Assembly: GCA_040751795.1 (NCBI GenBank)
Contig: JBFMHR010000001.1
Location: 337,357 to 401,356, forward strand
Source of the DNA: Thermoplasmatota archaeon
GTDB lineage: Archaea; Thermoplasmatota; Thermoplasmata; UBA10834
DNA length: 64,000 nucleotides
Direction of reading: 5' to 3'
A model generated the notes under the pieces. It saw nothing but the letters and a program-made list of their open reading frames with translations, had not been told where the DNA came from and did not search any database. Shown in pieces: positions 4,335 through 64,000 of this stretch (within the stretch, counting starts at the first letter, position 1; each line of letters starts with the position of its first letter). A program made the translations under genes and the position numbers.

Positions 4335-4691
4335 TCAGAGCCCGTCCCGGATTGAGGATGACTGGATGTTGTAGGAGGCTATGGTGTCCTCGAGGTCCTG
4401 GAGGAAGACCTCGTCGGTCTCGGAGAGGCTTACGAGTTCCGTACGCCCACCTCCGATATACAGCACGACGAGCATTTTCCCGTTCGAATATAGTTCGGCG
4501 AATCCGAAATCCGCGGAGGGGGAGGACATGTTCCTCCCGAAGGAGAGGCCGCACTCCCGCGCAATGTCGTCGAACAGCGGCCTGAGGGCGGCGGGCGCCT
4601 CGCGGGTGCGTATGACCGCCAAGGACATCCTCGACCTCCCGCAGAACGCCTTGACCTTCTCGAGGTCCTCCCTGCTCAGCTCCGGGGCCAT
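4335..4691 (-). CDS. hypothetical protein (118 aa, possibly roadblock/LC7-like alpha/beta)
   Basis: Clean composition; no recognised motif. Confidence 0.45.
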   Translation of the reverse strand: MAPELSREDLEKVKAFCGRSRMSLAVIRTREAPAALRPLFDDIARECGLSFGRNMSSPSADFGFAELYSNGKMLVVLYIGGGRTELVSLSETDEVFLQDLEDTIASYNIQSSSIRDGL

Positions 4692-17446: not shown

Positions 17447-17522
17447 GGGCCCATGGTCTAGTGGCTATGACATCTGCTTGACATGCAGAAGATCGCCGGT
17501 CCGAATCCGGCTGGGCCCACCA
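17447..17522 (+). tRNA. tRNA-Val(GAC): tRNA-Val (anticodon GAC), CCA encoded
   Basis: Hand-folded cloverleaf. Acceptor GGGCCCA/TGGGCCC, anticodon stem TCTGC/GCAGA with loop TTGACAT, T arm GCCGG-TTCGAAT-like-CCGGC, discriminator A, then CCA. Confidence 0.9.
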
Positions 17523-46795: not shown

Positions 46796-46818
46796 CCGAC
46801 GAGACCTCTCCTGTCTGA

Positions 46819-48170: not shown

Positions 48171-50276
48171 TCAGCCCGCCTTGTCATCGCCCTTGCCCCT
48201 GAGCCGCATGTACATGAGGGCCATCACGGCCGCCACGGCCAGCGTCCCCACGAGGCCCGCGATGAGCAGGACATTCATCGTGTCGGAGGCGTCGAGGTCG
48301 TCCTCTGCCGCCGCGAGCTGCTCCTCGACCTCGGCGAGCTCCTGCTCGGCCCCGGCCAGGTCAGCCTCGGCCGAGGTCATGTTAGCCACGGCCGCGGCGA
48401 GGTCGAACTGCAGCGAGAGGATGTCCGCCTCCGAGTCGTCGAGCTGCGCCTCGACTTCGGCCAGGTCCGCGAGGGCGTCGGCGAGCTCGTCCTCCGCCGC
48501 CAGCAGGGCCGCCTCGGCAGCCGCCAGCTGGGCCTCGAGGGACGCGACGTCGTCCTCCGCCGCGTCCAGCTGCGCCTGCAGGTCGGCCAGGTCGGCCAGC
48601 GCCGCGTCCAGGTCCGCCTGGAGCGCATCGATCTGCGCCAGGGCGTCGGCGAGCTCCGCCTCGACCGCCGCCAGGGGGTCGACGTAGGTTACGGTGACGG
48701 AGGCGTTCGCGGAGTTGCTCCAGAGGTCGACCGCCGTCGCGGTGACGGTGTTCTCCCCCTCCTCCAGGAGGACAACGCACGAGAAGGAGCCGTCGGCCTC
48801 GACCACCGCAGACATCCCGTTGACCGTGAGGGACGCGCCCGGCTCGGCCGTGCCCGAGACCGTGATCGCCGGGACATCGACAGTCGTCCCGTCGGCCGGG
48901 CTCGATATGGACACATGGGGCGGGGTCGTGTCAGGGACGGTGTACATGTTCGCCCAGACGTTGTACCTGAGGCCGTCGAACTGCAGCCACGCAGCGAAGA
49001 CGTTCCCGGACCCGTCGAGCGCCGCGTCCACGCCGACCGACGACTGGTTGCCGGTGGTGGAGGCCAGTTCCATGGGCATCCAGCCCTCGCCCGCCAGGTA
49101 CCGGCCCGAGCAGATGTTCCTGCGCTCGCCGTCCCACTGCTCCCACAGGGCGGTGCCGTTGCCCGTCCCGTCGAAGACGACCCTGGGGAGCGTCGCGAAG
49201 TCGTCGCTGTCCTCGACCGTCCCCGCGGTCCCCCAGCCCTCTCCGTGGACGTACAGGTTCGACCATATGCTTGCGATGCCGGCGTCGGCCTGCTGCCATA
49301 CGGCCAGGGCGTTCCCCGCGCCGTCGCAGGCCACGCGGACGCCGCTGGCGTCATAGGAGTCGTCGTCCTCGAGGATCTCGGCCTCCCCCCAGCCCTCGCC
49401 GACGGTGTACCGGTTGGACCAGATGCTGTAGAGGCCGTCTCCGAGGTCGTACTGGTACCAGACGGCGGTCGCGTCGCCCGAGGGACCGACGGCCACCTTG
49501 GGCTCCGACACGTCGCCGGTGGCGTTGCCGCCGATAGTCACGGCGGTGCCCCAGCCCTCCCCCGGGACGTACCTGTTGGCGGAGACGTTGACGGCGGAGA
49601 CGCCGACCTGGCACCACACCGCGACGACGCAGCCCGCGCCGTCCACGGCGACGTCCAGGGAGTACGCGCTCTCGACGTACTGCTCGGCCTCCTCCTCGAC
49701 CCCCCACCCGTCGCCGGCCACGTACCTGTTGGACCAGATGTGGCCGTAGCCGTCCTTGAACTGGGACCATACGGCGGTGGCGTTGCCCGACCCGTCGACC
49801 ACCACCTGCGCGAGGCCCGCCTCGTCCGCCTGGCCCTCTATGAGCTCGGCGGCCCCCCAGCCCTCGCCGGGGACGTAGCGGCTCGCCCACACGCTGCTGA
49901 CCGATGAGGTGTACCTCTGCCAGACGGCGATGGCGTTGCCGGACGCGTCGAATGCCACCCTGGGGTTGTAGCAGTTGTCGGTCCCGACGGAGTCGATCGA
50001 CGCGGCCCCGGTCCAGCCCGCGCCGGCGACGTACCTGTTGGCGAACACGTTGTTCCTGTACCCGTCGTGCTGGTCCCAGACGGCGAACGCGTTCCCCGAG
50101 GCGTCAGCCGCTATGAACGGGTAATCGGCCTCCGCCGAGTCCAGGGACTCGATCATGACGGAGTCGCCCCAGCCCGGGACCGGGGCGGCGGCCTGGGCCT
50201 CCTGGGGGACGCTGCCCACGGACAACAGACATGCGAACACTGACACACAGTACAGGGCTGTAAGGGACCTCCTCAT
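48171..50276 (-). CDS. large surface protein: signal peptide, eight ~45-aa tandem repeats, Ig-like region, long Ala/Asp/Leu coiled coil, C-terminal TM anchor
   Basis: Repeats of (D[AG]SGNAxAVWxQ...IWSNRYVxGEGWG). Start MRRSLTALY is at 50276. Confidence 0.65.
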   Translation of the reverse strand: MRRSLTALYCVSVFACLLSVGSVPQEAQAAAPVPGWGDSVMIESLDSAEADYPFIAADASGNAFAVWDQHDGYRNNVFANRYVAGAGWTGAASIDSVGTDNCYNPRVAFDASGNAIAVWQRYTSSVSSVWASRYVPGEGWGAAELIEGQADEAGLAQVVVDGSGNATAVWSQFKDGYGHIWSNRYVAGDGWGVEEEAEQYVESAYSLDVAVDGAGCVVAVWCQVGVSAVNVSANRYVPGEGWGTAVTIGGNATGDVSEPKVAVGPSGDATAVWYQYDLGDGLYSIWSNRYTVGEGWGEAEILEDDDSYDASGVRVACDGAGNALAVWQQADAGIASIWSNLYVHGEGWGTAGTVEDSDDFATLPRVVFDGTGNGTALWEQWDGERRNICSGRYLAGEGWMPMELASTTGNQSSVGVDAALDGSGNVFAAWLQFDGLRYNVWANMYTVPDTTPPHVSISSPADGTTVDVPAITVSGTAEPGASLTVNGMSAVVEADGSFSCVVLLEEGENTVTATAVDLWSNSANASVTVTYVDPLAAVEAELADALAQIDALQADLDAALADLADLQAQLDAAEDDVASLEAQLAAAEAALLAAEDELADALADLAEVEAQLDDSEADILSLQFDLAAAVANMTSAEADLAGAEQELAEVEEQLAAAEDDLDASDTMNVLLIAGLVGTLAVAAVMALMYMRLRGKGDDKAG

Positions 50277-50590
50277 CAGAACCACTCCGGGCACGGTCGG
50301 CGGGCCAACGGGACCCGATGACAATCTGGCCTGATGAACCTTTTCGCCTCGGTCCGCGTCGCGCGGGAGGGAGGGGGAGCATGGGGGACCCCGCATCCAG
50401 GCCCTCTGGGCGCACCCTGGCCAGGAGCCAGCTATGCTGGCTCCCGCGCATGCGGCCCCGACGCGCGCTGAGCCAGATACCGCTCCCCGGAGAGCCAGCA
50501 TTAGCAAACGCTTATATATCGTAAATCATGATACATATCTGGGTCATGCCTGGACGGTGTGGCCAGAAGGACACACGGAGGGATGAACGA

Positions 50591-50824
50591 ATGGTAATGG
50601 AGCCCATAAGCGTAGAGAAGGCCATGGAGATTGCCAAGAAGAAGGGAATCAAGCCCGGCCGCGTAAAGGGCACGAAGGGTGTGCAGTTCACCAAGGGAAG
50701 GAACCCGAGACTCGAGACCATCGACTGGGAGGAGTTCAAGGGGACCCTCGCCAAGAGGAAGCTGTCGGTCTTCGAGAGCGGCGGCTGGATGAAGATAATG
50801 AAGGCCAAGAAGGGCAAGAAGTAG
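50591..50824 (+). CDS. small basic protein (~77 aa), paralog of 56464-56712
   Basis: AKKKGIKPGRVKGTKGVQF...IDWEEF...GGWMKIMKAKKG. AT-rich upstream region. Confidence 0.5.
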   Translation: MVMEPISVEKAMEIAKKKGIKPGRVKGTKGVQFTKGRNPRLETIDWEEFKGTLAKRKLSVFESGGWMKIMKAKKGKK

Positions 50825-50939
50825 GACAACCTGCTCCAGGCCGATCTTCCCAAACCCCTTCGCAAACTCCACTTTTGATTCTAAACGGATGGGCGGGCCA
50901 CGTCCGAAGGCGGACGGGCCGCGCGGATGATCAGGTCCC

Positions 50940-52268
50940 TCAAGGTTTGAGGCGGAAGCCGCAGCCCCTGCAGAACAGGTAGTCGCCAGAGACGGCGCTG
51001 CCGCACTTGGGGCAGTTCGCGGACTGCCAGCCCTCCGGGGGAGGGGGGAGGTCCTCGGCCTGCGCCGGGGCAGCGGGGGCCTGCCACGCGGGCGCCTGCG
51101 GCACGGAGGGGGCCTGGGCGGTCATGAGGTTCTGCGGGAACCCGGGCGCGCCCCTGAGCTCCATCGGCTTCCTAAGCGGCGTCCCGTTCACCGCCAGGAC
51201 GCGCTTGGCCTCGGGGACCAGCGTCACGGTCGCGGGGACGCCCTCTGCCACGAGGCCCTTCGCCTCGCCGGCCCTGTTGAAGTGGAACGCGCCGAAGTCC
51301 CAGGCGCCGGACCTGAGGGACGGGACGTGGCGCCACTCGACCGCGGCGCCCCTGTCGAGGGCGCGCGCGAGCGAGGACGATAAGCTCCTCGCCTGGAAGG
51401 CTACCCCGAGGCTCATGGCCCCGAAGAAGAGGGGCATGATCAGCGCCACGGGCTCCTCCACGAAGTTGATCATGACCGCCATGGCCATGGACATGACGGC
51501 GAGGCCGACGGCGTTAACCTTCGGTGACCGGGTGATGCCCTTGAGGGCCTCGCGCTCGGCGGCGCTCAGGGGCCTCTCGTTGGGGTAGTGCAGCCCGACC
51601 CCGCCGACAGGGGTGCCCACGCCCGGGCCCGGGGGCTGCGGGTACGGGCCCGTGGTCCACTGCTGGGACGGCACGGGCTGCTGGGCGTAGGGGGCGCTCG
51701 TGGTGCCCGTCTGGAACCCCTTCGGCACCTTCGGGGGCGAGACGGCAACGACTATCGCGACGATGGCGAGGGTGATGCCTATGGCAGATACGATCGGGTT
51801 GATGCCCCCGACGGCGAAGAGGCCGCCCCTCTGGAGGTCGAAGTAGCCGTTGATCGTGACGCCGACGTTGAGGTACGAGCCGCTGCCGTACATGAGGTCG
51901 CCGTCGACGGTGAGGGCGTAGGTGGCCTGGCAGTAGCTGACGCCGTCCCAGCCCCACTGGAGCGTCATCATGAAGGTGGAGCCGTCGAAGGCCCCCCAGA
52001 CGGCGTAGCTCTGGGAGCCGACCGTCAGGGTGCCGGAGACGTCGGTGCCCGAGGAGGAGACGTCGAGGTCCGCGTCGAATGAGTCGGTGATCGTGCCCCC
52101 GTACGGGCCGAGGTAGGTCTGGGTGTAGCCCTCGCCGGAGATCCTGGAGGTCCAGCTGCCGTCGACCGATGCGGCGGAGGCGTTCTCGCTAGCTGCCGAT
52201 ATCGTGAATGCCGTGGTCCCTGTCACCAGGAGTGAGAGGACCAGGGCCCGTGCCCATGTTGCCTTCAT
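50940..52268 (-). CDS. membrane protein with exported N-terminal domain, Pro/Gln-rich linker and C-terminal zinc ribbon
   Basis: Signal peptide, TM helices, and CPKCGSAVSGDYLFCRGCG at the C-terminus. Confidence 0.55.
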   Translation of the reverse strand: MKATWARALVLSLLVTGTTAFTISAASENASAASVDGSWTSRISGEGYTQTYLGPYGGTITDSFDADLDVSSSGTDVSGTLTVGSQSYAVWGAFDGSTFMMTLQWGWDGVSYCQATYALTVDGDLMYGSGSYLNVGVTINGYFDLQRGGLFAVGGINPIVSAIGITLAIVAIVVAVSPPKVPKGFQTGTTSAPYAQQPVPSQQWTTGPYPQPPGPGVGTPVGGVGLHYPNERPLSAAEREALKGITRSPKVNAVGLAVMSMAMAVMINFVEEPVALIMPLFFGAMSLGVAFQARSLSSSLARALDRGAAVEWRHVPSLRSGAWDFGAFHFNRAGEAKGLVAEGVPATVTLVPEAKRVLAVNGTPLRKPMELRGAPGFPQNLMTAQAPSVPQAPAWQAPAAPAQAEDLPPPPEGWQSANCPKCGSAVSGDYLFCRGCGFRLKP

Positions 52269-52412: not shown

Positions 52413-53072
52413 CTAGACCCGCTCGCCCCTATGGTACCCGCACCGCGGGCACATGAGGGAGCCGCGGGGCCATATCATGCCGCACCTGGGACAGGCCACG
52501 CCGAAGCCGCAGCCCTCGCAGAAGCACGTCCCCCGGGCCATCGTCCTGCCGCAGTTGGGGCACTTCTCCGCCGCGGGCGCCCTCGGCTGCGGATCACCCT
52601 CGACGTAGCCCCTCCCTCCGCAGCCGGGGCACACCATGGAGCCCGAGGGGCCGGGGAGGACGCCGAGGCCGCGGCAGGCGGGGCACTTCTCGGTGCCCAG
52701 GCACCTGGGGCACTTGCCGGTGCCCCCGCAGAAGGGGCAGGCGCTCAAGGAGCCCCCTTTGCCCTTCCCCTTGCAGGCGTAGCAGTAGCCGTTGACGCAG
52801 TAGGAGACGGAGCCGTAGGCGAGGATGGATGTGAAGTCGTTGTGGCCGTGTGCGTTTGAGGAGACGCTCCATGTGCACTTTCCCGAGCCGCCGCAGGCTT
52901 TGCAGACGTCGATCCTCCCGAAGCCGTCGCAGACCTTGCACTCGGTCCTGCCGCGGCCTATTATGACCTGGGTGCCGCAGTACATGCAGTGGGCCTTGTC
53001 GAGGTCGGCGGGGAACCTGAGGCTGGAGCCGCACTTGGGGCAGACGGCTGCTATGAGCTCGACCTCGGCCAT
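52413..53072 (-). CDS. cysteine-rich protein with zinc ribbons and DnaJ-type CxxCxGxG repeats
   Basis: Start MAEVELIAAVCPKCG. About 13 CxxC pairs, several as CxxCxGxGK (CKVCDGFG, CKACGGSG, CPFCGGTG, CPGCGGRG). Confidence 0.55.
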   Translation of the reverse strand: MAEVELIAAVCPKCGSSLRFPADLDKAHCMYCGTQVIIGRGRTECKVCDGFGRIDVCKACGGSGKCTWSVSSNAHGHNDFTSILAYGSVSYCVNGYCYACKGKGKGGSLSACPFCGGTGKCPRCLGTEKCPACRGLGVLPGPSGSMVCPGCGGRGYVEGDPQPRAPAAEKCPNCGRTMARGTCFCEGCGFGVACPRCGMIWPRGSLMCPRCGYHRGERV

Positions 53073-53225
53073 CCCCTTCACCCTCAGTTGGGGCGGGATT
53101 GGCGGGACGGTATTATATGGTTTCACGGGGGAGTCCACCCTGCCCTGACGGGAGGGGTGAGGAGAAGGAGGCCGGACGGAAGGGTTATTTATACGGCGAC
53201 AATCATGGGCCCTCGCAACCATCGG

Positions 53226-53310
53226 GCAGGGATAGCCAAGCCTGGCCAACGGCGATAGATTCAGGGTCTATTCGCGAAGGCGTCCGCCGGTTCAAATCCG
53301 GCTCCCTGCA
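53226..53310 (+). tRNA. tRNA-Leu(CAG): tRNA-Leu (anticodon CAG), class II with long variable arm, CCA not encoded
   Basis: Hand-folded: acceptor GCAGGGA/TCCCTGC, D arm GCC-AAGCCTGGCCAAC-GGC, anticodon stem ATAGA/TCTAT with loop TTCAGGG, variable stem CGC-GAAG-GCG, T arm GCCGG-TTCAAAT-CCGGC. Confidence 0.9.
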
Positions 53311-53370
53311 CATCGCGACATCTGGCTATTTTCAAATCAGAGGGTTTTTGTCTGCTGGCACCCCCCCTGG

Positions 53371-54570
53371 CTACGGCTTTTCCGCGAACGCTTCCTCGAG
53401 CTCCCGGAAGGCGTCTTCGGACCGTATCCGCGCGTAGTAGAGTTCGGTCGTTCTCGTCGTTCTGTGCCTCAGCGCCTTGGACACAGACTCGATCGACGCG
53501 CCCCGGTCCTTGCACATCTGCCCGAAGGTCGCTCGCAGATATTGCACCCGGAAGGGTATCCCCGCGTGCTTCTGCGCATCATCCTTCATGCTGCCCCACA
53601 TGCCGTCGGTCCAATAATCTACTCGGCCGTCCCTGTAGATCCGGGGCACAAGGGGCTCACATTCGCCCACGCCGTTCTCAGTCAGGTACTTCGTCCTCGC
53701 CTTGAGGAAGTCGAGCACCGTCTGTCGGGCGGGCTGCAGGATCGGCGCTGTGCCTGCGGAGGCATAGCGCGTCTCTCCCTTCGGGTGGCTCACGAGGACT
53801 CTCCACTTGGAGATGTCTATGTCCTGCAGTCGGGCCTTGCGCAGCTCAGACCGTCTGAGCCCTGTGTACGCGTACATCGCGACGGCGAAGCGGGCCACCT
53901 CGCCGTCCCAGCCGGGCATGTTCGCCAACTTGGCCCGTAGTTCCTCCACAGTGGTCTGCTCCAGGGTCCTGATCTCCGGGGAGACCTTCTGAGGGAACCG
54001 GACGTAGTGTAGCGCTCGCATCCGGTTCATGACCGGGTTCTCGCATATCAACAGCATCTCGGCCAGGAATGCAAGGTAGTTCGCCTGCGTTGCTGGCCTC
54101 AAGCCGATTCCGGTCTTGGTCTTGCGGTCCTTCATCCACTGGAGGAATGCTTCGATGTCGGCCTGAGTCATCTTCCTCGGGTTGATGGTCGACACCTTGC
54201 CCTTCTTCCTGAGCGCCTTGAACGCGTCTCCGATGACCTTCAGGCCCCTCGTGATGGTCCTGTGGGTCGATGCCGCGTAATAGGGCCGTACGGCCTCTAG
54301 GAAGGCGTTGGCGCAGGGGTTGAACGGGTTGCGCCCACCCACAGACCTCGCCCTCCTCGGACGGCCTCTTCTCGTTCTGCGCGGGGGGTTTTGCTCCGAG
54401 CGGTTATTGGTTCGGCTGCTCTTGCTGTTGGCATCCGGCACCGCTCCGGAGGCGAGTTGTCTACCACCATGTGGTAGTATCCTCTCCTCAAGAACGGTAT
54501 TCCTCTCCGGAGCCGTTAATGCTTCGCCCCGGGCGACTCCCATGTGGGAGTCGGACACCTTCTCCTCCAT
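53371..54570 (-). CDS. tyrosine-type site-specific integrase
   Basis: C-terminal catalytic region with R...LRHRTTRTTELYYAR (HxxxR...Y) and an N-terminal SAM-like/core-binding domain. Confidence 0.85.
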   Translation of the reverse strand: MEEKVSDSHMGVARGEALTAPERNTVLEERILPHGGRQLASGAVPDANSKSSRTNNRSEQNPPRRTRRGRPRRARSVGGRNPFNPCANAFLEAVRPYYAASTHRTITRGLKVIGDAFKALRKKGKVSTINPRKMTQADIEAFLQWMKDRKTKTGIGLRPATQANYLAFLAEMLLICENPVMNRMRALHYVRFPQKVSPEIRTLEQTTVEELRAKLANMPGWDGEVARFAVAMYAYTGLRRSELRKARLQDIDISKWRVLVSHPKGETRYASAGTAPILQPARQTVLDFLKARTKYLTENGVGECEPLVPRIYRDGRVDYWTDGMWGSMKDDAQKHAGIPFRVQYLRATFGQMCKDRGASIESVSKALRHRTTRTTELYYARIRSEDAFRELEEAFAEKP

Positions 54571-54636
54571 CTCTCAACCCCCCCGCCGCAAAGTGGGGCC
54601 GACCTCGGTCGGCCCGGTTTTCTATGGTTTTGCGGC

Positions 54637-54816
54637 TTACTCTTCGTCCTCTTCCTCCCGATCGTCGCTCTCAGACTCGTCCGAGGAGTAGTACTCCTCG
54701 AGGTAGTCCAGCAGGATGTGCATCGCCAATTCCTGCGTCGTGAGCCCTTGCTCTTTGGCGATGGCGTTCAGCTGTCGAGCCGTCTCCCCTCTTGCCTCAA
54801 TCACCTGGGCATCCAC
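54637..54816 (-). CDS. small acidic-tailed protein (59 aa, possible RHH/excisionase-like regulator)
   Basis: GTG start. Reads MDAQVIEARGETARQLNAIAKEQGLTTQELAMHILLDYLEEYYSSDESESDDREEEDEE. Just upstream of the integrase on the same strand. Confidence 0.3.
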   Translation of the reverse strand: MDAQVIEARGETARQLNAIAKEQGLTTQELAMHILLDYLEEYYSSDESESDDREEEDEE

Positions 54817-54970
54817 TTCTTCACCTCCGCATCAGGTCGGCCGGGAGACCCCCCCCCCAGCCGCCTAATGTCTACCATTGTATACATTATACTGACTCAT
54901 AAATCTTTTCATGCCATGCATATAGGCCACAACATTGATATCCGGCTGTAGACATTCAACCACGATACCC

Positions 54971-55672
54971 ATGGCGAAGAAGAATCCCCCCGCGTCCACT
55001 GGCAGCCTTGAGAAGTCCAAGGAGTTGCTCGTCCTGGCATACTTCCTATTCACCGGCAACAAACCCGCATCTGCCGACAGGGTGGTCGAGTACTGGTCCC
55101 CTGAGGGAACCGGGGTGAAGGAGGAGGTGCTTCCCGAAGGCGTCGGACCAGACGAACGGAGTCTCTCGAGAGCAGGTGCGGCCAAGATCTGCAAGCGCCT
55201 AGTCAGTGAAGGACTTCTATTCAAGAGGGAGCGACTGGGATACAGGAACAAGATGGTCAACGAGTACTACCTCCCATCTGGTTCGGAATTCCTGATGGTC
55301 GGCGAGAGGATCATGAAGACCTACCCGATGCTGGCACTCAGAAGCGACTACGGGAAGGAATGGCTCCGAACCAGTGCCATTCCCAGACTGTGCAGAACCC
55401 TCAGAATCGACCTGAAACCCTGGCTAGGTGACATTGAATGGGTGGCGGGGAGATCACCGACTGTGTTCACCATGATGACTGACGATACGATTAAACATGG
55501 CTCCGCTGCACGCCTCGAATCCGAGAAAGAGAGGATCTCCGCATTTCTTGAATTCCTCATATGCGCGGTGAAGGTGGACATGATGTCGGGAGCAAAGGGG
55601 CTGCTGCTTGACGGAGAGACCTCGCGAGAAGTCACAGACCGGCTCAGAGATACAATCAAAGGATTCACCTGA
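54971..55672 (+). CDS. hypothetical protein (island cargo)
   Basis: 234 aa, no motif recognised. Lower GC. Confidence 0.45.
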   Translation: MAKKNPPASTGSLEKSKELLVLAYFLFTGNKPASADRVVEYWSPEGTGVKEEVLPEGVGPDERSLSRAGAAKICKRLVSEGLLFKRERLGYRNKMVNEYYLPSGSEFLMVGERIMKTYPMLALRSDYGKEWLRTSAIPRLCRTLRIDLKPWLGDIEWVAGRSPTVFTMMTDDTIKHGSAARLESEKERISAFLEFLICAVKVDMMSGAKGLLLDGETSREVTDRLRDTIKGFT

Positions 55673-55833
55673 TGTTGTTGACTGGGCGTGCCATCTGCTT
55701 CATCGAGACTGATACCGAGCAGGGCATGTTGATGAGACTCTCCTTGACGGAGACCCGCTTCCGAGGTGTATTCTTGGTGAGATGAGAATCATATTCTGAC
55801 GTAGCCGTTTGAGTCCGATTCGCTGATATCTTC

Positions 55834-56361
55834 ATGGTGACGCACGCGAATGCGCGAATTATGATTAACTGGAAATTCTACCCGTTGGCCGAGAGGATTC
55901 CTCCCCATCTCGTGAAGGTCATCGAGGTTCTCGAGGGCAAGTCGGATCACATCTCTTCATCCGATCATGAGCTGAACAGCAACGATGTACTCGCGACGTT
56001 GAGAGAAGATCTCGAACACCTGGGATACATAGTCGAGAGAGGATCCAAAGACAGGATCAGAATGCCCGTCCTATACGGAGAGAACGGAAAGGTGGAGAAA
56101 TCCTTCGACGTCGATGCCTACGATGAGTCGACCGGAACAGTCATCGAGGTAGAGGCCGGAAGGGGAGTGACGAATCATCAGTTCCTGAAGGATTTCTTCG
56201 AAGCATGTACGATGCATGATGTGGAGTACTGCACGATTGCCGTTCGGAACACCTACCTACGGCGCTCGGATTTCAAAGCTGTCGCCTCGTTCATGGATGC
56301 CCTGTACGCGAGCGGCAGAATCTCACTGCCGCTGAAGGGTCTACTCGTGATCGGATATTGA
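55834..56361 (+). CDS. hypothetical protein, possible PD-(D/E)xK-type nuclease
   Basis: FDVDAYDESTGTVIEVEAGRG...K resembles a D...ExE/K nuclease core. Weak. Confidence 0.4.
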   Translation: MVTHANARIMINWKFYPLAERIPPHLVKVIEVLEGKSDHISSSDHELNSNDVLATLREDLEHLGYIVERGSKDRIRMPVLYGENGKVEKSFDVDAYDESTGTVIEVEAGRGVTNHQFLKDFFEACTMHDVEYCTIAVRNTYLRRSDFKAVASFMDALYASGRISLPLKGLLVIGY

Positions 56362-56463
56362 ACATGTTCTAAGACAGGTCCACCGTCGTCGAGAATATCT
56401 GCTATTTTCACGCTGCCCGGGCAACCCTCATATAAGTGAATAGCCGATTCTCGAGATGGTGAA

Positions 56464-56712
56464 ATGATGACCGTGGGACGAGATCTTCGGATGTACTCAT
56501 CGGACGAAGTCAGGAAGTGGGCAAAGAAGAAGAAACTGAGCCCCGGAAAGGTAAGAGGCACAAAGGATGGAATCCAATTCGTTGCGATCGGTGGCAGCGA
56601 CAAGATCGAGGAAATTGAGTGGGAACTCTTCGATGCGGTGCTCAAGAAGAAGCGACTCGCTGTCTATGGCACGAGAGAGGGTTGGATGCGCATAATGAGG
56701 AGAAAGACCTAG
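56464..56712 (+). CDS. small basic protein (82 aa), island-borne paralog of 50591-50824
   Basis: AKKKKLSPGKVRGTKDGIQF...IEWELF...EGWMRIMRRKT. Confidence 0.5.
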   Translation: MMTVGRDLRMYSSDEVRKWAKKKKLSPGKVRGTKDGIQFVAIGGSDKIEEIEWELFDAVLKKKRLAVYGTREGWMRIMRRKT

Positions 56713-56755
56713 AATCGTGGACTGAAGAAGTCTAATATGCCCTCATTGCATTGGG

Positions 56756-58912
56756 ATGTGCAGAATGCCTGTGCCAGCAAGTTCGACAGAGGCGGTCGTT
56801 CAGCAGTCGTTTCCGACAGAGCATGGATCTGTGGAAGGACTTCGTTGTGAGTCTAGGTGCAAGACGCACAAGCACGACCCCTGGGGCAAGTGGCCATCCA
56901 CCACGAAGATCGTGATCCCCATTCTTGCAGAGCACCCCTGTTATGACCGCACCTGGGGCCTGGAACCCAGAGACGGACGCTGGAAGACCAGGCTTGCCGA
57001 CTCCATCGAGCGTCGTAGGAGACGCATCCCGTCTGGAACAAGGGATCGTCAGGAGATCCTCGATGCTATCGACAGAGTGACCCTCAGGACGTATCATGCA
57101 GCTAGAGTACTGCAGACCCATTTCAACAACCCGTCGCATGAGAACTACCGGGATCCATTTCTCGAGACAATGTACATAATGCTCACTTGGAGGACCAGGA
57201 TCCCCGACGCCAGAGCCCGTTTGAGGGACATAATGGACTCCTTCAAGGGCCCGCGTGCGCTCCTCAGCGAAGATGGACTCCTGCTCCTCAGGAACATCAT
57301 CAAGAGGTCAGGTTTCTCTGGAAAGAGACCTGAGATGATTACGGAACTGACGAGACGATTCATCGAAGAGTTCCCTGACGGCGACACGCAGGTGATGAGA
57401 GCCTGGAAGGACGACGAGATCATCCGGTTCCTGACAAGCATGCCAGGGATCGGTTTGAAGTCTGCCCTTTGCGTGATGATGTACTCCCTAGATAGAGATC
57501 GATTTCCGATAGACACCCACGTTGGACGTGTGCTCAAGAGAACTCAGATGCTCAGAGAGCTTGTCACGGTGGGACAGGACACGGATCACAAGACCGTCCA
57601 GGCAACGGCAGAATTCGCGGCGCCTCCGAGCGCGAGGATGGCGATTCATGCAGGATTGGTGTCACTCGGTCAGACGATATGCAGAGTCGGTACACCGTCT
57701 TGCGGCAAGTGCCCGATCAGACATGTCTGTGAGTATTACAGAATGATGACCATTGAGAACACTGAGGGTGCGCTCTACAGTCACGTCGACCTATTCTGCG
57801 GGGCCGGAGGCTTCTCTGAGGGGTTCTCGAAGGAGAGGTTCAGGACGGTTCTCGCTGTTGACTTCGACCAAGACGCGTGCGAGACGTTCAGAATGAACCA
57901 TCCGGGGATTCCCGAAGAGAACGTTGTGTGCGAGGATCTGGCCCGACGCCAAGTGAAGACATTCATCAAGAATCACATCAGAGGACGCGAACAACTCAGA
58001 CCGGGAGCTGTCGACGTTCTCACAGCAGGAATTCCTTGTCAGGGATTCAGCAAGGCTGGCTACAGGTCACGACCCGGTCTGAGATATGAACCACTCAAAG
58101 ATCCAAGGAATCTACTCTACAGGCGCGTGCTTCTCTGGATTCGGGATCTCAAACCGAGATACATCGTTCTGGAGAACGTCCCCGAGATCAGATCAGCAGG
58201 TGGCAAAGAGGCTAGCATTCTCGACACGATCTGCCGTTCCCTGGGCAAGCTTGGGTACCGGGTAGACAGCGGCGTCGTCAATGCTCGAGACCATCGGGTC
58301 CCGCAGACGAGGTACCGCATGATTGTCATTGCATCCCATCAGTCGGTTCCCGAGGTGAAGATAGAGGATCTAGGAGGACACGGAAAGAAGGGATCGACCC
58401 TCGGAAGAGCGATAGGAGATCTCCCTCCGCTGACCGACAGTGGGAACCCATACTATCTCAACTGGTCTGGCTCAGTCCTGACAGGTCATGTTTCCAGATC
58501 CAACAATGATGATGACCTAGAGATATTCGAGGCCCTTGAACCGGGGGAGAAGTACCAAGACTTCGCGAAGAGAAGAAAGGATATACTGCAGGCCAGGCGA
58601 AGACGCGGGAAGCATGCAGTCTACGGTACCAGGAGCTTCGAAGACAAGTACTACAAGCTCGATCCAGATAGTCCATCAAGAACCATCGTCGCCCATCTGC
58701 ACAAGGATGGAAACGGCTACATCCACCCATTCCAAACACGGTCGATCTCAATCCGTGAGGCAATGCGCCTCCAAGGATTCCCCGATGACTACATATTCTG
58801 TGGAAGCGCCACCAGACAGTATATCCAGATCGGAAATGCTGTCCCCCCGCCTCTGGCAAGAGATATCGCGCGCCTCCTAGCCCAGAATCTCAACTCCGCA
58901 TGGAGAGTGTGA
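56756..58912 (+). CDS. fusion protein: HhH-GPD DNA glycosylase with [4Fe-4S] cluster loop (N-terminal) plus DNA (cytosine-5)-methyltransferase (C-terminal)
   Basis: N-terminal HhH (MPGIGLKSA), catalytic Asp (IDTHVGRV), and Cx6Cx2Cx5C (CRVGTPSCGKCPIRHVC). C-terminal m5C MTase motifs: I FCGAGGFSEGF, IV GIPCQGFS, VI ENVPE, VIII QTRYR. Confidence 0.85.
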   Translation: MCRMPVPASSTEAVVQQSFPTEHGSVEGLRCESRCKTHKHDPWGKWPSTTKIVIPILAEHPCYDRTWGLEPRDGRWKTRLADSIERRRRRIPSGTRDRQEILDAIDRVTLRTYHAARVLQTHFNNPSHENYRDPFLETMYIMLTWRTRIPDARARLRDIMDSFKGPRALLSEDGLLLLRNIIKRSGFSGKRPEMITELTRRFIEEFPDGDTQVMRAWKDDEIIRFLTSMPGIGLKSALCVMMYSLDRDRFPIDTHVGRVLKRTQMLRELVTVGQDTDHKTVQATAEFAAPPSARMAIHAGLVSLGQTICRVGTPSCGKCPIRHVCEYYRMMTIENTEGALYSHVDLFCGAGGFSEGFSKERFRTVLAVDFDQDACETFRMNHPGIPEENVVCEDLARRQVKTFIKNHIRGREQLRPGAVDVLTAGIPCQGFSKAGYRSRPGLRYEPLKDPRNLLYRRVLLWIRDLKPRYIVLENVPEIRSAGGKEASILDTICRSLGKLGYRVDSGVVNARDHRVPQTRYRMIVIASHQSVPEVKIEDLGGHGKKGSTLGRAIGDLPPLTDSGNPYYLNWSGSVLTGHVSRSNNDDDLEIFEALEPGEKYQDFAKRRKDILQARRRRGKHAVYGTRSFEDKYYKLDPDSPSRTIVAHLHKDGNGYIHPFQTRSISIREAMRLQGFPDDYIFCGSATRQYIQIGNAVPPPLARDIARLLAQNLNSAWRV

Positions 58913-59091
58913 CCGTCAAGCGATGATGGATTGACTGCATGATTCGTTCTCCGTCATAACACTGTTGTTTTACTCACTGAAATCAATATATCAGACTAGG
59001 CGATACGGGAGATGGTCGAACATGAAGACCGGCGGAGTGGTCTGGTCACCATACCTGCTACGCGGTCCGTGGGAGCCAATGAAGGGGGAAT

Positions 59092-60603
59092 ATGGCAGAG
59101 TACGAGGAGATACCTCCGAGAGCAGATGCGATGGTCGCGTCAATGCGAGCTATCGGATACGACCTCTCAATGGCCATCGCAGATATCATAGACAATAGCA
59201 TCTTCGCCGGAGCCAAGAACATACAAGTCGATTTTGACTGGGCAGATGGGAGCCCCTGGATACGAATCACAGATGACGGAAGGGGCATGAGTGACGAAGA
59301 GCTGCGCGAGGCCATGCGCCTTGGAGGCAAGGGCCCGAATGACATCAGAGATCCTGAGGATCTTGGAAGGTTCGGTCTCGGACTCAAGACTGCCTCATTC
59401 TCACAGTGCCGGATCCTCACCGTCAGCACCAAGGTAGCAGGCGGGAGAACATCGACAAGGTGCTGGGACCTTGACGTTATAGAACACACAAAGAAGTGGC
59501 AGCTCAGGCTCCTGCCACCAGAAGACGCGGAGCCACTGCTAGACGACCTGCTCGAAGTGGATAGCGGTACCGTTGTCCTCTGGCAGAGGCTCGACAGGGT
59601 CATCGATGGGCCCGACGATATCACCGATGGTGAGACAATCTTCCGGAAGAAGTTCATCGATGTTGGCAGACATCTCGAGATGGTCTTCCATAGATACCTG
59701 AGCGGGCCTGGTAAAATGGATATCTCGATAGGGAGGACCCCTCTGAGGCCATGGGATCCGTACCTTCTCACCAACCAATTCACACAGGAACTCTCGACCG
59801 AGAAGTACGAAGATGGCTCCATAAGGATCATTCCATACGTCCTTCCGCATGTGTCTAAACGGACTGCAACCGAGACGGCAGCCGGGGCCGGAGTGAAGGG
59901 TTGGAACGCACAGCAGGGATTCTACGTATACAGGAATCGTCGGATGATAATCTCAGGAGGCTACCTCGACTTCGACATAAAGCCCGAGGAACACTACAAA
60001 CTTGCCAGAATCATGGTAGACCTGAAGAATAACATGGATAGCGAATGGAGGATCGACGTGCGCAAGGCAGTGGCCATCCCTCCAGACCGGCTCAGATCAC
60101 AGCTCGAGAAGGTAGCCAGAGCAGCAAGAGAAGAGGCGGTCAAGGTCTACAGGGCAAGAACTGGCCGAGGTAGGAAAGCTGCGCGAACGAACACGCAGGA
60201 AGTATGGATCAAAAGGCGAAGAGGTGACAAAATCATCTACGAGATCAACCGTGAGAACGAGGCAACCAAGAGGATCCTTGCGGAGATCTCTCCGCCGGAG
60301 CGTTGGGTGAAGAAACTCTTCGGGACAATCGAACGAACAGTACCACACAGGGAAATCATCATAGACTCGTGTGACAACGAGGACTGTCATGTGGATCTGC
60401 CTCCCGAGACAAGCCCACCAGATCGAGGTCTCATCGACATGTGCATCGAGATCTACGAAGAGATGAAAGCGAACGGGAGATCTCATGAGGAAGCGTCGGA
60501 ATATGTTCTTTCTATAGAGCCATTCAATACACATCCATCATTCAGAGCGACTCTGGACAGTCTCGCAGAGGAGGCAAGCTTACGAACACAAAGAACGAGA
60601 TGA
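59092..60603 (+). CDS. GHKL-superfamily ATPase (MORC / MutL-like, HATPase_c_3 type)
   Basis: Bergerat-fold motifs: N box DIIDNS, G1 DDGRGM, G2 GRFGLGLK. Confidence 0.8.
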   Translation: MAEYEEIPPRADAMVASMRAIGYDLSMAIADIIDNSIFAGAKNIQVDFDWADGSPWIRITDDGRGMSDEELREAMRLGGKGPNDIRDPEDLGRFGLGLKTASFSQCRILTVSTKVAGGRTSTRCWDLDVIEHTKKWQLRLLPPEDAEPLLDDLLEVDSGTVVLWQRLDRVIDGPDDITDGETIFRKKFIDVGRHLEMVFHRYLSGPGKMDISIGRTPLRPWDPYLLTNQFTQELSTEKYEDGSIRIIPYVLPHVSKRTATETAAGAGVKGWNAQQGFYVYRNRRMIISGGYLDFDIKPEEHYKLARIMVDLKNNMDSEWRIDVRKAVAIPPDRLRSQLEKVARAAREEAVKVYRARTGRGRKAARTNTQEVWIKRRRGDKIIYEINRENEATKRILAEISPPERWVKKLFGTIERTVPHREIIIDSCDNEDCHVDLPPETSPPDRGLIDMCIEIYEEMKANGRSHEEASEYVLSIEPFNTHPSFRATLDSLAEEASLRTQRTR

Positions 60604-63404
60604 TCATTGGCATGTCCCATGCCTGGTTCAGGGACAAGAATGTCGGACAGCAGGAGATCAGGGACTTCATCGTTAAGATGAGGGGTCTCTTCCCAGATCA
60701 TGACTTGGACGAGGAATCACTTTTCAGGCAACTCGAGTCGATCCACTCCGTCAGGATTGGACGAGAGACCACACTTGACGACAAGAGGGACCACGTTGAA
60801 TGGTTGAACCCGTCGACGGGAGAGGGACTGAAACGAGAGATTGACTGGCACTTCTGGGGCCATTACAGTGACTACCTCTCGGTTGCCAAGGGATGGCCAA
60901 GAAACATGGTTCACAGTATCGATAGTCTATCTAGCCAGGTCTTGTCTAGACTTGAGGATCCTCAGAGACCCGGCCCATGGGACCGCCGAGGGATGGTCAT
61001 GGGGAGTGTCCAATCCGGGAAGACCGCCAATTACACTGCACTCATCACGAAGGCCGCCGACGCAGGCTACAAGTTCATCGTAGTCCTCGCAGGCGTGCAC
61101 GACAGTCTGAGAAGTCAGACCCAGACGAGACTGAACGAGGAATTCCTCGGCTACGACATTGACAGAGTGAGGAAGCTCACGGGAGGCGAACGACGGATCG
61201 GCGTCCGCGAGATGTTCCCGAATCACAATCCAGTCTACACGCTTACGAGCAGTGACCAGAAGGGCGACTTCAGCAAGGTGGTTGCGTCACAGAGCGGCAT
61301 CTTTCCGAGCGTTGATGGCCACCCGATAATTCTCGTCATAAAGAAGAACGTCAGCATCCTTCGCAATCTCTACACATGGATACCTTCGGTCATCAGCCAG
61401 ACAGACACCACAGGGCGGAAACTCATAAGGGACATCCCACTGCTACTCATCGACGACGAATGTGATTTCGCGTCAATCAACACGAAGCAGCCGGAGAAGG
61501 ACGAGAACGGGAAGATAATCGAAGAATGGGATCCCACTGCCATCAACCGGCTCATACGGCAGCTGCTGCGCCTCTTCGACAAGTGTTCATACGTAGGCTA
61601 CACCGCAACACCCTATGCCAATGTCTTCATCCACATTGATGATACTCACCCCCGCTATGGAGAAGACCTCTTCCCGAGAAGCTTCATCGTCAGCCTGCCG
61701 CAGCCAAGCAACTACATGGGCCCGGAGAAGGTATTCGGCTTCGATGAGGCCGACCGGGCCGTGACTGCATCCGAACCACTGCCCCTTGTGCGCCTTGTCG
61801 ACGATCAATCTGCGTGCATACCCGAGGGACACGACAAGGAGCTCATCGTGGAGGATCTGCCTCACAGCCTCAAGCTCGCCATGAGATACTTCCTGCTCAG
61901 TTGTGCGGAGCGACGACTCCGCGCTGAGGGAGTGCCACACAATTCGATGCTGATCCATGTCACGAGATTCACAGCGGTTCAACAGCAGATCAAGGATCTT
62001 GTCGACAGAGAACTGAAAGAGCTGGCATCAAGAATAATGAGCAGAGACCCGCTCGCGGACTTCCGCGAGATATGGGATAATGACTTCATCCCGACCTCAC
62101 GTGAGATGACAGATCGTGGATACAGAGACTCATCGACCCACGACTGGGATGACATCGAGAAGAGCCTCGGAGTCATCGCGAGAGTCATGAATGTCAGATT
62201 GATAAACGGAACCGTGAGAGATGCGCTTGACTACAAGGACGCCGAGATCGCAGCCACCAGCCGTAGAAGAAGTGGCGAGGAGGTCCCATGGGAGGAGAGA
62301 GGCCTGAGCACCATCGTAATTGGAGGCGACAAACTCTCAAGAGGACTGACACTCGAGGGACTCACGGTGAGCTACTACCTCAGAGCTTCAACCCTGTACG
62401 ACACACTGATGCAGATGGGAAGGTGGTTTGGATACAGGAGAGGATACTCCGATCTCTGCAGGATATTCACGACGGAGGAACTGGTGTCATCATACCAACA
62501 CATCGCGCTAGCTACAAGGGAACTCAGGGAGGATATCGAGTACATGTCGGAGCTCAGACTCACCCCGAGTGAGTTCGGCCTCAAGGTCAGGAGCCATCCT
62601 GGTCGACTAGCCGTGACATCATTGGGGAAGTCGAGGAACAAACAGAAAGTCTCCCTCTCCTACGAGGGACATATATCCGAGACGGTTGCTTTCAACCCGA
62701 GGAATTCACGAACCAACGTCCAGTCTCTCACCAGACTGATATCCGACATTGACAGGAAACCTGACTTCGAACATGACACGAAGAGGAGATACCACTGGAC
62801 GGATGTTCCTCCCGAGAGAGTGCTTTCATTCCTCGGCAGGTACAAGAGTCACTCGGTGGGGACGAGACTCGTCGATCCCAGGGCTATTGCAGGGTACATC
62901 GAGAAGCAGAACCTCCAAGGTGAGCTCGTCACATGGAATGTCGTGGTCGTCTCGAAGGAAGTTGCCAGCGGACCCGATGACGAGGACGCGACGCACTTTC
63001 TCTCAGTCGGAGGCTATGACGTGACCTGCGTGACGAGGAAAGCACTGAAGGTGAGTGCTGACAAGATATCGATCCGCAGGCTCGTCAGTCCAGCCGACGA
63101 GGCGCTCGATCTGTCCCGAGATGAAATCGAGAAGGCGAGGATCATCGACGGGGCGAAGTCAGGGAAGCAGCCCTCCGAGATTGGCCTCCCATCTGGGCCG
63201 TCGATCAGACAGGCGAGACCAAAGGAACGAGGTCTGCTGCTAGTCTATGTCATCTCTGGAAGAGATGATGCGGGTACAATCTACGGCGACGAGGGGCACG
63301 AGGTTGTGGGTTTCGCCGTCAGTTTCCCCAAGAGCATGACCGCGGAGCCAATTGAGTACTGGGTCAACCCTGTATATCAGGAAGAGGACCAGCACTACAC
63401 CTGA
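60600..63404 (+). CDS. Z1-domain P-loop NTPase protein
   Basis: 934 aa with Walker A GSVQSGKTANYTA and Walker B-like LLLIDDECD. Architecture matches the Z1 family found in predicted restriction systems. ATGA overlap with the GHKL gene. Confidence 0.75.
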   Translation: MIIGMSHAWFRDKNVGQQEIRDFIVKMRGLFPDHDLDEESLFRQLESIHSVRIGRETTLDDKRDHVEWLNPSTGEGLKREIDWHFWGHYSDYLSVAKGWPRNMVHSIDSLSSQVLSRLEDPQRPGPWDRRGMVMGSVQSGKTANYTALITKAADAGYKFIVVLAGVHDSLRSQTQTRLNEEFLGYDIDRVRKLTGGERRIGVREMFPNHNPVYTLTSSDQKGDFSKVVASQSGIFPSVDGHPIILVIKKNVSILRNLYTWIPSVISQTDTTGRKLIRDIPLLLIDDECDFASINTKQPEKDENGKIIEEWDPTAINRLIRQLLRLFDKCSYVGYTATPYANVFIHIDDTHPRYGEDLFPRSFIVSLPQPSNYMGPEKVFGFDEADRAVTASEPLPLVRLVDDQSACIPEGHDKELIVEDLPHSLKLAMRYFLLSCAERRLRAEGVPHNSMLIHVTRFTAVQQQIKDLVDRELKELASRIMSRDPLADFREIWDNDFIPTSREMTDRGYRDSSTHDWDDIEKSLGVIARVMNVRLINGTVRDALDYKDAEIAATSRRRSGEEVPWEERGLSTIVIGGDKLSRGLTLEGLTVSYYLRASTLYDTLMQMGRWFGYRRGYSDLCRIFTTEELVSSYQHIALATRELREDIEYMSELRLTPSEFGLKVRSHPGRLAVTSLGKSRNKQKVSLSYEGHISETVAFNPRNSRTNVQSLTRLISDIDRKPDFEHDTKRRYHWTDVPPERVLSFLGRYKSHSVGTRLVDPRAIAGYIEKQNLQGELVTWNVVVVSKEVASGPDDEDATHFLSVGGYDVTCVTRKALKVSADKISIRRLVSPADEALDLSRDEIEKARIIDGAKSGKQPSEIGLPSGPSIRQARPKERGLLLVYVISGRDDAGTIYGDEGHEVVGFAVSFPKSMTAEPIEYWVNPVYQEEDQHYT

Positions 63405-63408
63405 TGGG

Positions 63409-64000
63409 GTGGCGGAAACGTTGCGTGATCTCGAATCAATCTGGAAGGAACTTGAGGGTCGATATGCCGGGGAAGATGGGGTCTATCGAAGACTCGATCT
63501 CGCACACGAAACAGGAATAAGAATGGCGGTACTCCATCCTGGTCGGACGTGGGCCATCTTGGTCGAAGTATCTCCAGAGGATGTCACCTCACTGATTCCA
63601 CCTCGATGGCGTGGCATGGGGGTGAGCGTGCTGCCACACACGGGCCCGGTGCCGTCCATGAAACACATCTGCCTCTATGTGGAGGCGTTGGAGCATAGGC
63701 CAGTATTCACCGCCTTGTGTACCGACATAATCAGGACCCTTGAATCGTCTTCCGTCGCGCAACGCATGGAAAATCTCCAACAGTGTTTTCTCCGCTGGTC
63801 AAGATTCTTCGAGAGGTGGAACCAGGAGGGAATGACGCTTGAAAGACAACGTGGACTGCTGGGTGAGCTCGAATTTCTCGACATGCTTCTGAGGCGTCAG
63901 ATACCGATCTTCACATCAGTGTCCTCGTGGAAAGGGTGCGATGGAGGCGTACACGATTTTGCGCTCGGAAGGAATGCTATCGAAGTCAAGACCACGGTGA
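63409..64000 (+). CDS. PD-(D/E)xK nuclease-like protein (possibly AIPR-type), 3'-partial
   Basis: ORF runs off the window. GTG at 63409 (or ATG at 63523). The C-terminal part visible reads ...GCDGGVHDFALGRNAIEVKTTV (D...EVK motif). Confidence 0.5.
   Translation, partial: MAETLRDLESIWKELEGRYAGEDGVYRRLDLAHETGIRMAVLHPGRTWAILVEVSPEDVTSLIPPRWRGMGVSVLPHTGPVPSMKHICLYVEALEHRPVFTALCTDIIRTLESSSVAQRMENLQQCFLRWSRFFERWNQEGMTLERQRGLLGELEFLDMLLRRQIPIFTSVSSWKGCDGGVHDFALGRNAIEVKTTV

Follow-up and report, generated by a model that had tools for sequence, protein, structure and literature searches.

A probable tRNA-Leu-associated integrative element of a Thermoplasmatota archaeon carries an MZA-like defence operon with a glycosylase-cytosine methylase fusion

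Tyrosine integrases of archaeal tRNA-targeting elements have been reviewed in PMC8371274, which describes pNOB8-type enzymes with a YxxR signature and SSV-type enzymes with a KxxR signature. Operons combining a GHKL (paraMORC) ATPase, a Z1 protein, a nuclease, and an AIPR protein were described as restriction-modification (R-M)-like systems that commonly include Dcm and Vsr (Iyer, Abhiman & Aravind 2008, PMC2292703), and Dcm-containing types and a 'type II' system are treated by Miller et al. 2022 (PMC9523054). In its passage on mzaABCDE, the latter paper calls this system 'validated', citing Gao et al. 2020 (a status also given in PMC13223576), and places MzaA, which is sigma-factor-like in the tested system, in only a few related systems. 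A locus that is of a known kind on both counts, as a tRNA-targeting integrative element and as a member of the MZA or paraMORC-Z1 family, occupies the right-hand end of a 64,000-nt stretch of a Thermoplasmatota archaeon (GenBank assembly GCA_040751795.1, contig JBFMHR010000001.1, positions 337,357 to 401,356; hereafter the window). The region from window position 53312 to beyond 64000 very likely represents the tRNA-side portion of an integrative element whose cargo is an MZA-like defence operon, and its most notable detail is a glycosylase-methylase fusion in the place of Vsr.

The presumed integration target, on the attL side, is a tRNA-Leu(CAG) gene (53226-53311, plus strand) identified by ARAGORN and by Rfam RF00005 (47.4 bits over 53226-53310, gathering score 29) in a focused scan of 251 nt around the tRNA; a default-filter scan of 52500-64000 missed it, which is a filter artefact. 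The gene has an archaeal-type sequence in which CCA is not encoded, and a TATA-like TTATTTATAC lies ~35 nt 5' of it. As the preliminary description of this region had reported, a tyrosine integrase gene (53371-54570, minus strand; a 399-aa open reading frame, ORF) lies close by, its stop codon separated from the tRNA end by 60 nt, and the assignment is confirmed by PF00589 (34.5 bits, cutoff 27.1) and by the PHROG_1 integrase profile (E 6e-23). Alignment with 12 homologues shows R239, K264, R346, H369, and Y379 to be invariant, and Q343 is a conserved Gln where most family members carry the first His of HxxR. The conserved region begins near residue 80, and the relatives are mostly 320-340 aa long, compared with 399 aa here. 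The ORF is intact and its predicted catalytic core is complete. No sequence relative of the integrase was found in the PDB with phmmer; a scan of viral contigs with the integrase gave no match and a phage collection gave only a 28% match, so that neither scan showed any sign of a provirus. Upstream of the integrase and in the same orientation lies a small ORF of 59 aa (54637-54816, minus strand), with an acidic tail and an N-terminus weakly resembling ribbon-helix-helix (RHH) proteins. The preliminary description had placed an RHH-like ORF at this position; the ORF is indeed present, but its match to PF20605 (Antitox_RHH, E 0.061) is sub-threshold and the RHH affinity is weak. A homologue adjoins the integrase in the related locus L018 (68% over 34 aa), and the product is a candidate excisionase, directionality factor, or regulator.

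The composition of the cargo is foreign to the host. Across the host portion of the window (1-53000), GC content averages 0.661 +/- 0.028 (212 windows of 500 nt, only one of them below 0.58), compared with 0.540 +/- 0.018 and a maximum of 0.58 in the cargo (54571-63500). GC content at third codon positions (GC3) is 0.90-0.96 in seven host genes and 0.59-0.68 in the cargo genes, with values of 0.80 for the integrase and 0.77 for the RHH-like ORF. Because both GC and GC3 of the cargo fall far outside host variation, the drop is real. The abrupt fall originally described directly after tRNA-Leu is real (0.661 to 0.540) but not a single step, since GC declines in two stages, to 0.61 across the integrase and then to 0.54 in the cargo.

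Comparison with related loci (designated here by L numbers) supports the earlier proposal of a tRNA-targeting integrative element in several ways. In L004-L007, four assemblies (JGI, NCBI, ENA, and Logan) of one Thermoplasmatota locus, a 58%-identical integrase gene ends 33 nt from a tRNA-Leu(CAG) that is identical to that of the window at 81 of 86 positions. The host flank there is syntenic, with phosphoglucosamine mutase and NTP transferase genes ~7 kb away, as in the window at 44268-46867, and the cargo comprises a HEPN-AbiV gene and an MmeI-like gene, with a GC content of 0.41-0.48 compared with 0.54-0.59 for the host. L003 encodes an 80%-identical integrase with a near-identical 3' flank, followed by a 21-nt fragment of tRNA-Leu and then by alpha/beta hydrolase and PHA synthase genes; these metabolic genes are taken as host DNA, and no tRNA was found within 10 kb in this locus. 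This arrangement resembles the distal junction that such an element would be expected to have. L018 shares 86% DNA identity with the window over 7.6 kb (94% and 93% amino acid identity for MzaB and MzaC, respectively) and carries the integrase N-terminus at its left end, the RHH-like ORF, the small protein p82, the fusion, and MzaBCDE, p245 and most of p175 being deleted. Because L018 repeats the RHH-like ORF and the integrase N-terminus beside MZA cargo, the integrase and the cargo appear as linked travellers in two independent assemblies, the window and L018. Finally, L009 contains a 76%-related MZA island of 17.7 kb between two sites, a left one (4384-4515) in which a decayed tRNA-Leu is followed by a ~35-nt motif, termed the arm, and CGGCTCCCTGCAC, and a right one (22194-22242) with the same arm and CGGCTCCCTGCAC; these form direct repeats that frame the island and terminate in the tRNA-Leu 3' end.

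The preliminary description had named a uniform gene order at this tRNA in all related genomes as evidence against an integrative element. Such uniformity was not found, because gene order at tRNA-Leu varies among the relatives: the site holds HEPN-AbiV and MmeI-like genes in L004-L007, low-GC DNA with small ORFs and no adjacent integrase after the tRNA-Leu and arm of L020, and MZA genes in the window, as well as in L018 together with the integrase. No truly empty site was recovered: the L019 contig stops within the tRNA, and the site in L020 is occupied. L019 is a contig of a sister genome (mutase 94% identical, mutase region 89% identical at the DNA level) whose position 1 corresponds to window position 53280, so that it stops inside tRNA-Leu ~10 nt before the T-stem; this break is consistent with population heterogeneity or repeats at tRNA-Leu. 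L020 (ERZ25039527 contig_15924) ends 5.6 kb past tRNA-Leu, and L003 is contig_15925 of the same sample. Given the shared sample and the consecutive contig numbers, the two may represent opposite ends of a single element at least 28 kb long.

Integration would follow the classical scheme, in which the tyrosine integrase recombines an element-borne site with the 3' end of tRNA-Leu(CAG), element sequence regenerates the tRNA, and a second copy of the core marks the far end. The candidate core (TTCAAATCCGGCTCCCTGCAC, 53291-53311, plus strand) covers the last 21 nt of the tRNA gene, T-loop through acceptor end. A core of about this length is probable because the identical 21-mer occurs as an isolated tRNA-Leu 3' copy in L003 (11157-11177), after the 80%-identical integrase; in addition, the homologous MZA island of L009 has the final 13 nt of this 21-mer on both sides (at 4503 and 22230). 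The arm (53313-53348, minus strand) lies in the gap that separates the integrase stop codon from the tRNA end and has the pattern CTGATT-GAAAA-N-AGCCAG-N5-6-TCGCG; throughout the family it is located 3' of the integrase stop codon. An nhmmer profile built from seven arms recovered the window arm at E 6e-8 as a single copy in the window, and its matches lay solely beside tRNA-Leu 3' ends or fragments (L003, L004-L007, L009 with two copies, L017, and L020). The arm is probably an integrase-binding part of the att site.

What follows the arm differs between loci: in the window, L004, and L020 it is the tRNA in reverse complement, and in L003, L017, and L009 it is a sense-strand tRNA 3' fragment. 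An earlier explanation, in which the opposite core orientations of the window and L003 were attributed to a 'flipped core' in attP, was dropped in favour of a model with inverted arms, which is now preferred. The simplest reconciliation is that the integrated element would read core> <arm (interior) arm> core>, with inverted arms at both ends, and that the interior, bearing the integrase at one end and a 210-nt non-coding 'X' region at the other, could be inserted in either orientation. Under this model, attR of the present element would consist of arm> and then a 13-21-nt core, so that the second core copy would probably be preceded by the ~35-nt arm in inverted orientation. An 11-mer tRNA-like match at L004 position 4555 was rejected as a chance match. 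Together, the arm motif and the 21-nt core can be used to search Thermoplasmatota genomes for elements of this family.

The cargo ORFs reported in the preliminary description, namely two hypothetical proteins, a basic protein, the fusion, a GHKL ATPase, a Z1 protein, and a nuclease, were all found at their positions. Its term 'restriction-type' island holds in that the cargo is of defence type, and can be refined to an MZA-like system with Dcm, no classical restriction endonuclease having been identified. By family assignment, the cargo is an MZA-like or paraMORC-Z1-DUF4420-AIPR system with a Dcm methylase. The MzaB-like GHKL (paraMORC/MutL-like) ATPase (59092-60603, plus strand) matches the PADLOC MzaB model over its full length (E 5e-86) and PF13589 (E 2e-31), scores 368 bits with NCBIfam MzaB (equivalog cutoff 850), and retains an intact N-box (DNSIFAGA) and DDGRGM motif. 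It also gave the sole match of any island protein to a PADLOC restriction endonuclease model (REase_II, E 8.6e-5), far weaker than its MzaB match. The MzaC-like Z1-domain P-loop ATPase (60600-63404, plus strand), whose start overlaps the mzaB stop codon, matches PADLOC MzaC (E 6e-183), PF10593 (E 2e-72), and NCBIfam MzaC (698 bits, cutoff 1500), with a Walker A motif GSVQSGKT and a Walker B motif LLLIDDECD. The MzaD-like PD-(D/E)XK (DUF4420) nuclease gene (63409-64000, plus strand) is cut by the window end, and the values for it rest on the N-terminal 197 residues inside the window: PADLOC E 2e-11, PF14390 E 4e-31 over profile positions 2-186 of 306, and NCBIfam MzaD E 6e-20 with 72 bits (cutoff 420), together with a D...EVK motif. 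The complete mzaD of L018 encodes 332 aa and is followed by MzaE, a 670-aa AIPR protein; AIPR proteins of 670-808 aa directly follow MzaD in L001, L008, L009, and L018, and homologues are also present in L002 and L010-L012. Because MzaE follows MzaD in the relatives, MzaE of the present operon is expected just past the window, at roughly 64.4-66.4 kb.

Relatives of the cargo recovered by genome and metagenome scans have MzaC identities of 66-77% and lie on contigs with a GC content of ~0.44-0.55, including contigs assigned to a Methanosaeta metagenome-assembled genome (MAG) and a Mesotoga MAG. The MZA loci of these two contigs (L001, DAIO01000072.1, and L002, WOZY01000280.1, respectively) are 99.5% identical over 8 kb, and L010 was noted alongside them. 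The identity of L001 and L002 reflects either a very recent inter-domain transfer or, more likely, a mis-binned short contig. A fragment resembling, by eye only, the C-terminus of a DUF2075-type ATPase was seen in L018 (11368-11829, minus strand) and L011 (3425-3874, minus strand), on opposite sides of the MZA operon, and may be another defence-island neighbour.

Immediately ahead of the mza genes lies the 718-aa glycosylase-C5 methyltransferase fusion (56756-58912, plus strand), which consists of an N-terminal extension, an HhH-GPD glycosylase domain (~aa 120-335), and a C5 cytosine methyltransferase domain (aa 342-714). The N-terminal 120 aa had no PDB or Pfam match. The methylase is assigned by PF00145 (E 2e-58) and NCBIfam dcm TIGR00675 (168 bits, cutoff 100.65), and is predicted to be catalytically competent, as all catalytic motifs are visible in the translation (FCGAGG, PCQ, ENV, QTRYR, GNAV). 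The glycosylase matches the NCBIfam DR2438-type model (E 6e-20) and, in the PDB, 4UNF, the Deinococcus radiodurans endonuclease III (EndoIII)-1 (E 4e-20 over 209 residues), ROS1 (5e-11), and Mig 1KEA (3e-7); its motifs include the HhH GIGLKSA, the catalytic Asp in PIDTHV, and a 4Fe-4S loop of the form C-x6-C-x2-C-x5-C. The same fusion occupies the same place in L018 (84% amino acid identity) and in L008, L009, and L011 (62-64%), and ~40 further full-length clusters, down to 35% identity and including bacterial MAGs, exist in databases, where they are named only 'DNA (cytosine-5-)-methyltransferase'. The fusion is thus widespread in public data and apparently undescribed in the literature searched.

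Other versions of the operon (L001, L010, and L012) end with a convergent Dcm gene instead of the fusion, and a separate HhH-GPD gene was found downstream of Dcm in both loci checked (L001 and L012), overlapping it by 4 bp in L001. For comparison, the dcm and vsr genes of Escherichia coli also overlap. At only 23% identity, this separate glycosylase is distant from the domain in the fusion, and the domain order is reversed; coupling of an HhH-GPD glycosylase to the Dcm of the operon thus seems to have arisen on more than one occasion. Both Vsr and the T:G mismatch glycosylase Mig.MthI are encoded beside C5 methylases, and by analogy the role of the glycosylase is most likely T:G repair after deamination of 5-methylcytosine, equivalent to that of Vsr. 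The C5 methylase domain would mark the DNA of the host, the EndoIII-like domain would remove T from the T:G mismatches left by 5-methylcytosine deamination, which is the job of Vsr in bacterial operons, and MzaB, MzaC, and MzaD together with the predicted MzaE would act as an ATP-driven machine against invading DNA, most likely DNA without the mark.

Among the small proteins encoded ahead of the fusion, the basic protein p82 (56464-56712, plus strand) is conserved in position, with 70-80% identical homologues directly upstream of the fusion in L008, L009, L011, and L018, and it is present in every contig carrying the fused type of system. It had no family or PDB match, and its structure model reached a predicted local distance difference test (pLDDT) score of 54.8, too low for a fold search; it may bind DNA or serve as a regulator. 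The host encodes a paralogue of p82 with 42% identity, a basic protein of ~77 aa, at 50579-50791 (plus strand), inside the only host GC dip (50250-51000, GC 0.56-0.61). Orthologues of this paralogue occur at the syntenic host position in L004, L019, and L020, and this small-protein family, conserved in Thermoplasmatota and without a Pfam model, has been co-opted beside the glycosylase-Dcm fusion. The hypothetical protein p245 (54935-55672, plus strand), which is divergently oriented to the RHH-integrase pair, is accessory, being absent from L018, and gave no match to Pfam, PADLOC, NCBIfam, PHROG, or PDB.

Several observations weigh against the interpretation of the region as an integrative element with an MZA-like, methylation-guided system. 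No second copy of the tRNA 3' end or core, and no attR, was found within the 64-kb window. The related island of L009 lacks an integrase and is bordered on the left by att remnants in a degenerate array. The GC3 of the integrase-RHH module is intermediate between those of host and cargo, from which it follows that the integrase and the cargo may have different histories and that the element may be a mosaic. For the operon itself, the NCBIfam scores of MzaB, MzaC, and MzaD are well below the equivalog cutoffs, and MzaA is missing, none of the five upstream ORFs matching a PADLOC model; on both grounds the operon is best regarded as a divergent relative of the tested MZA system rather than the tested system itself. 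Methylation dependence is only presumed for MZA-type systems, and literature searches found no paper on the Mza mechanism. In addition, the glycosylase keeps the Lys of EndoIII (in GIGLKSA), is closest to EndoIII-1, and also resembles ROS1, so that its T:G specificity is suggested by genomic context only.

One alternative is that the island is a fixed remnant of one or several past insertions at an integration hotspot, now immobile and with no usable attR. L009 illustrates such decay with its pseudo-tRNA, its tandem degenerate arm and core remnants, and its lack of an integrase, L013 contains two tandem integrases with only a 22-nt tRNA fragment, a mosaic origin is suggested by GC3, which is 0.80 in the integrase and ~0.63 in the cargo, and p245 and p175, which are present here, are deleted in L018. 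Against this, the integrase ORF of the window is of full length with all conserved catalytic residues, the tRNA and the arm are intact and abut exactly as in L004 and L020, and the strong contrast in composition argues for a recent arrival of the cargo. We therefore consider a fixed remnant unlikely and favour an element that may still be mobile. Independently of this question, the left end of L009 (4384-4545) can be viewed as an att-site graveyard, in which a decayed tRNA-Leu is followed by two to three tandem degenerate arm and core remnants.

A more speculative possibility, to which a low probability is assigned, is that the glycosylase takes part in the immune mechanism itself, as in a mismatch-repair-like form of restriction, and that, separately, the element is able to sit either way at tRNA-Leu. 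In this scenario, the glycosylase would excise bases from invading DNA where target sites are unmethylated or carry abnormal modifications, and the resulting abasic sites or nicks would be expanded into lethal damage by the MutL-like MzaB, the Z1 motor MzaC, and two nucleases, MzaD and MzaE, with p82 as a DNA-binding regulator; insertion in either orientation would rely on an att site of inverted arms around an asymmetric core. Vsr-like repair in the service of a methylating defence system is preferred here.

Alternatively, the methylase could belong to an ordinary Type II R-M system, with p175 (55834-56361, plus strand) as its endonuclease, beside an independent, methylation-blind MZA abortive-infection system. 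The tested mzaABCDE system is not known to contain a methylase, which would count in favour of this view. By eye, p175 has a possible nuclease-like D...EVE motif, and the alpha/beta order predicted in a low-confidence model is compatible with a PD-(D/E)XK fold; this model (pLDDT 41.6) is itself unusable, and p175 had no PDB or Pfam match. The sigma-factor-like MzaA that PMC9523054, in its passage on mzaABCDE, gives for the tested system points in the same direction. However, p175 is accessory: a 70% homologue occurs in L009, and it is shortened in L018 and absent from L008 and L011 while the fusion-MzaBCDE block is intact. Moreover, Dcm lies in or beside the operon in all relatives whose flanks were examined (L001, L008, L009, L011, L012, L018, and L021; the short contig L002 was not among them), and the association of Dcm and Vsr with GHKL-Z1 operons is a published regularity (PMC2292703; PMC9523054). 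Such a Type II pair is accordingly quite improbable, and the methylase is better treated as part of the MZA-like operon.

It is highly improbable that the contig is a chimera mis-joined inside the conserved tRNA-Leu to low-GC DNA of another organism or population, since, although the window derives from a MAG, the tRNA is near-identical across related populations, the sister-genome assembly breaks exactly inside it, and composition shifts right there, the same tRNA-integrase junction with a similar GC drop recurs in the four assemblies of the L004-type locus, the integrase GC3 of 0.80 is intermediate and host-leaning, the arm directly abuts the tRNA end as in the relatives, and even a chimeric junction would be a real attL in some genome.

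Elsewhere in the window, the phosphoglucosamine mutase (45491-46867) is 100% identical to MEW5747537.1 in NCBI, as are the integrase to MEW5747543.1 and the fusion to MEW5747548.1 (with a start three codons later), and these three entries lie together on one contig of a MAG labelled 'Candidatus Thermoplasmatota archaeon'. Around another tRNA gene of the window, tRNA-Val(GAC) (17447-17522, plus strand), composition at 1-kb resolution shows no anomaly and no integrase is nearby. A 778-aa predicted surface protein (48171-50507, minus strand) is highly repetitive internally, has a coiled-coil segment rich in Ala, Glu, and Leu as well as a membrane anchor at its C-terminus, and is ~73% identical to its relatives, compared with ~89% for the neighbouring genes.

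Collectively, the locus provides a clear case from archaea of a tRNA-targeting integrative element bearing a defence system, in an uncultivated, high-GC lineage of Thermoplasmatota, and neither the element nor its cargo overturns a current view. The MZA-like or paraMORC-Z1 operon is exchanged between archaea and bacteria and repeatedly recruits a repair enzyme beside its cytosine methylase, Vsr in bacteria and an EndoIII-like glycosylase, fused or separate, in archaeal and environmental versions. This repeated recruitment argues that methylation and its mutational cost are integral to the working of the system, and its recurrence offers a handle for experiments on the MZA-like system.

Compared with known systems, the element agrees with classical, non-suicidal archaeal integrases (PMC8371274) in having an intact integrase gene outside the att site, and with classical archaeal tRNA-targeting elements in that the 3' part of the tRNA is targeted and would be regenerated and that the cargo varies among relatives. 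It does not match the SSV (suicidal) type, because the integrase gene is unsplit and lies 60 nt outside the tRNA, nor the pNOB8 type with its R...YxxR...Y signature, the corresponding residues here being Q343-Y-L-R346; its signature, R...QxxR...H...Y, thus differs from both the YxxR of the pNOB8 type and the KxxR of the SSV type. A further difference from classical archaeal elements is that the integrase and arm may be placed at the tRNA-proximal or the tRNA-distal end of the element. With mzaABCDE (Gao et al. 2020, as presented in the passage of PMC9523054 on this system), the cargo shares MzaB, MzaC, and MzaD in the same order and with overlapping genes, but it has the glycosylase-Dcm fusion and p82 before the operon, no MzaA, and an archaeal host. 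On the Agrobacterium plasmid pDG3-1d, the operon consists of Vsr/Dcm, an ATP-binding protein, Z1, PD-(D/E)XK, and AIPR; such paraMORC-Z1 operons resemble the present one in the order Dcm, ATPase, Z1, PD-(D/E)XK, and (predicted here) AIPR and in their mobility across unrelated lineages, whereas Vsr there is replaced by an EndoIII-like HhH-GPD glycosylase here. Finally, the fusion resembles Vsr and Mig.MthI in coupling a repair enzyme to a 5-methylcytosine methylase, sharing with Mig the HhH-GPD fold and the Fe-S loop, but differs from them in that the two activities are predicted to reside in one covalently fused protein and in a glycosylase sequence that is closer to EndoIII-1 (E 4e-20) and carries the lysine of the EndoIII/ROS1 type.

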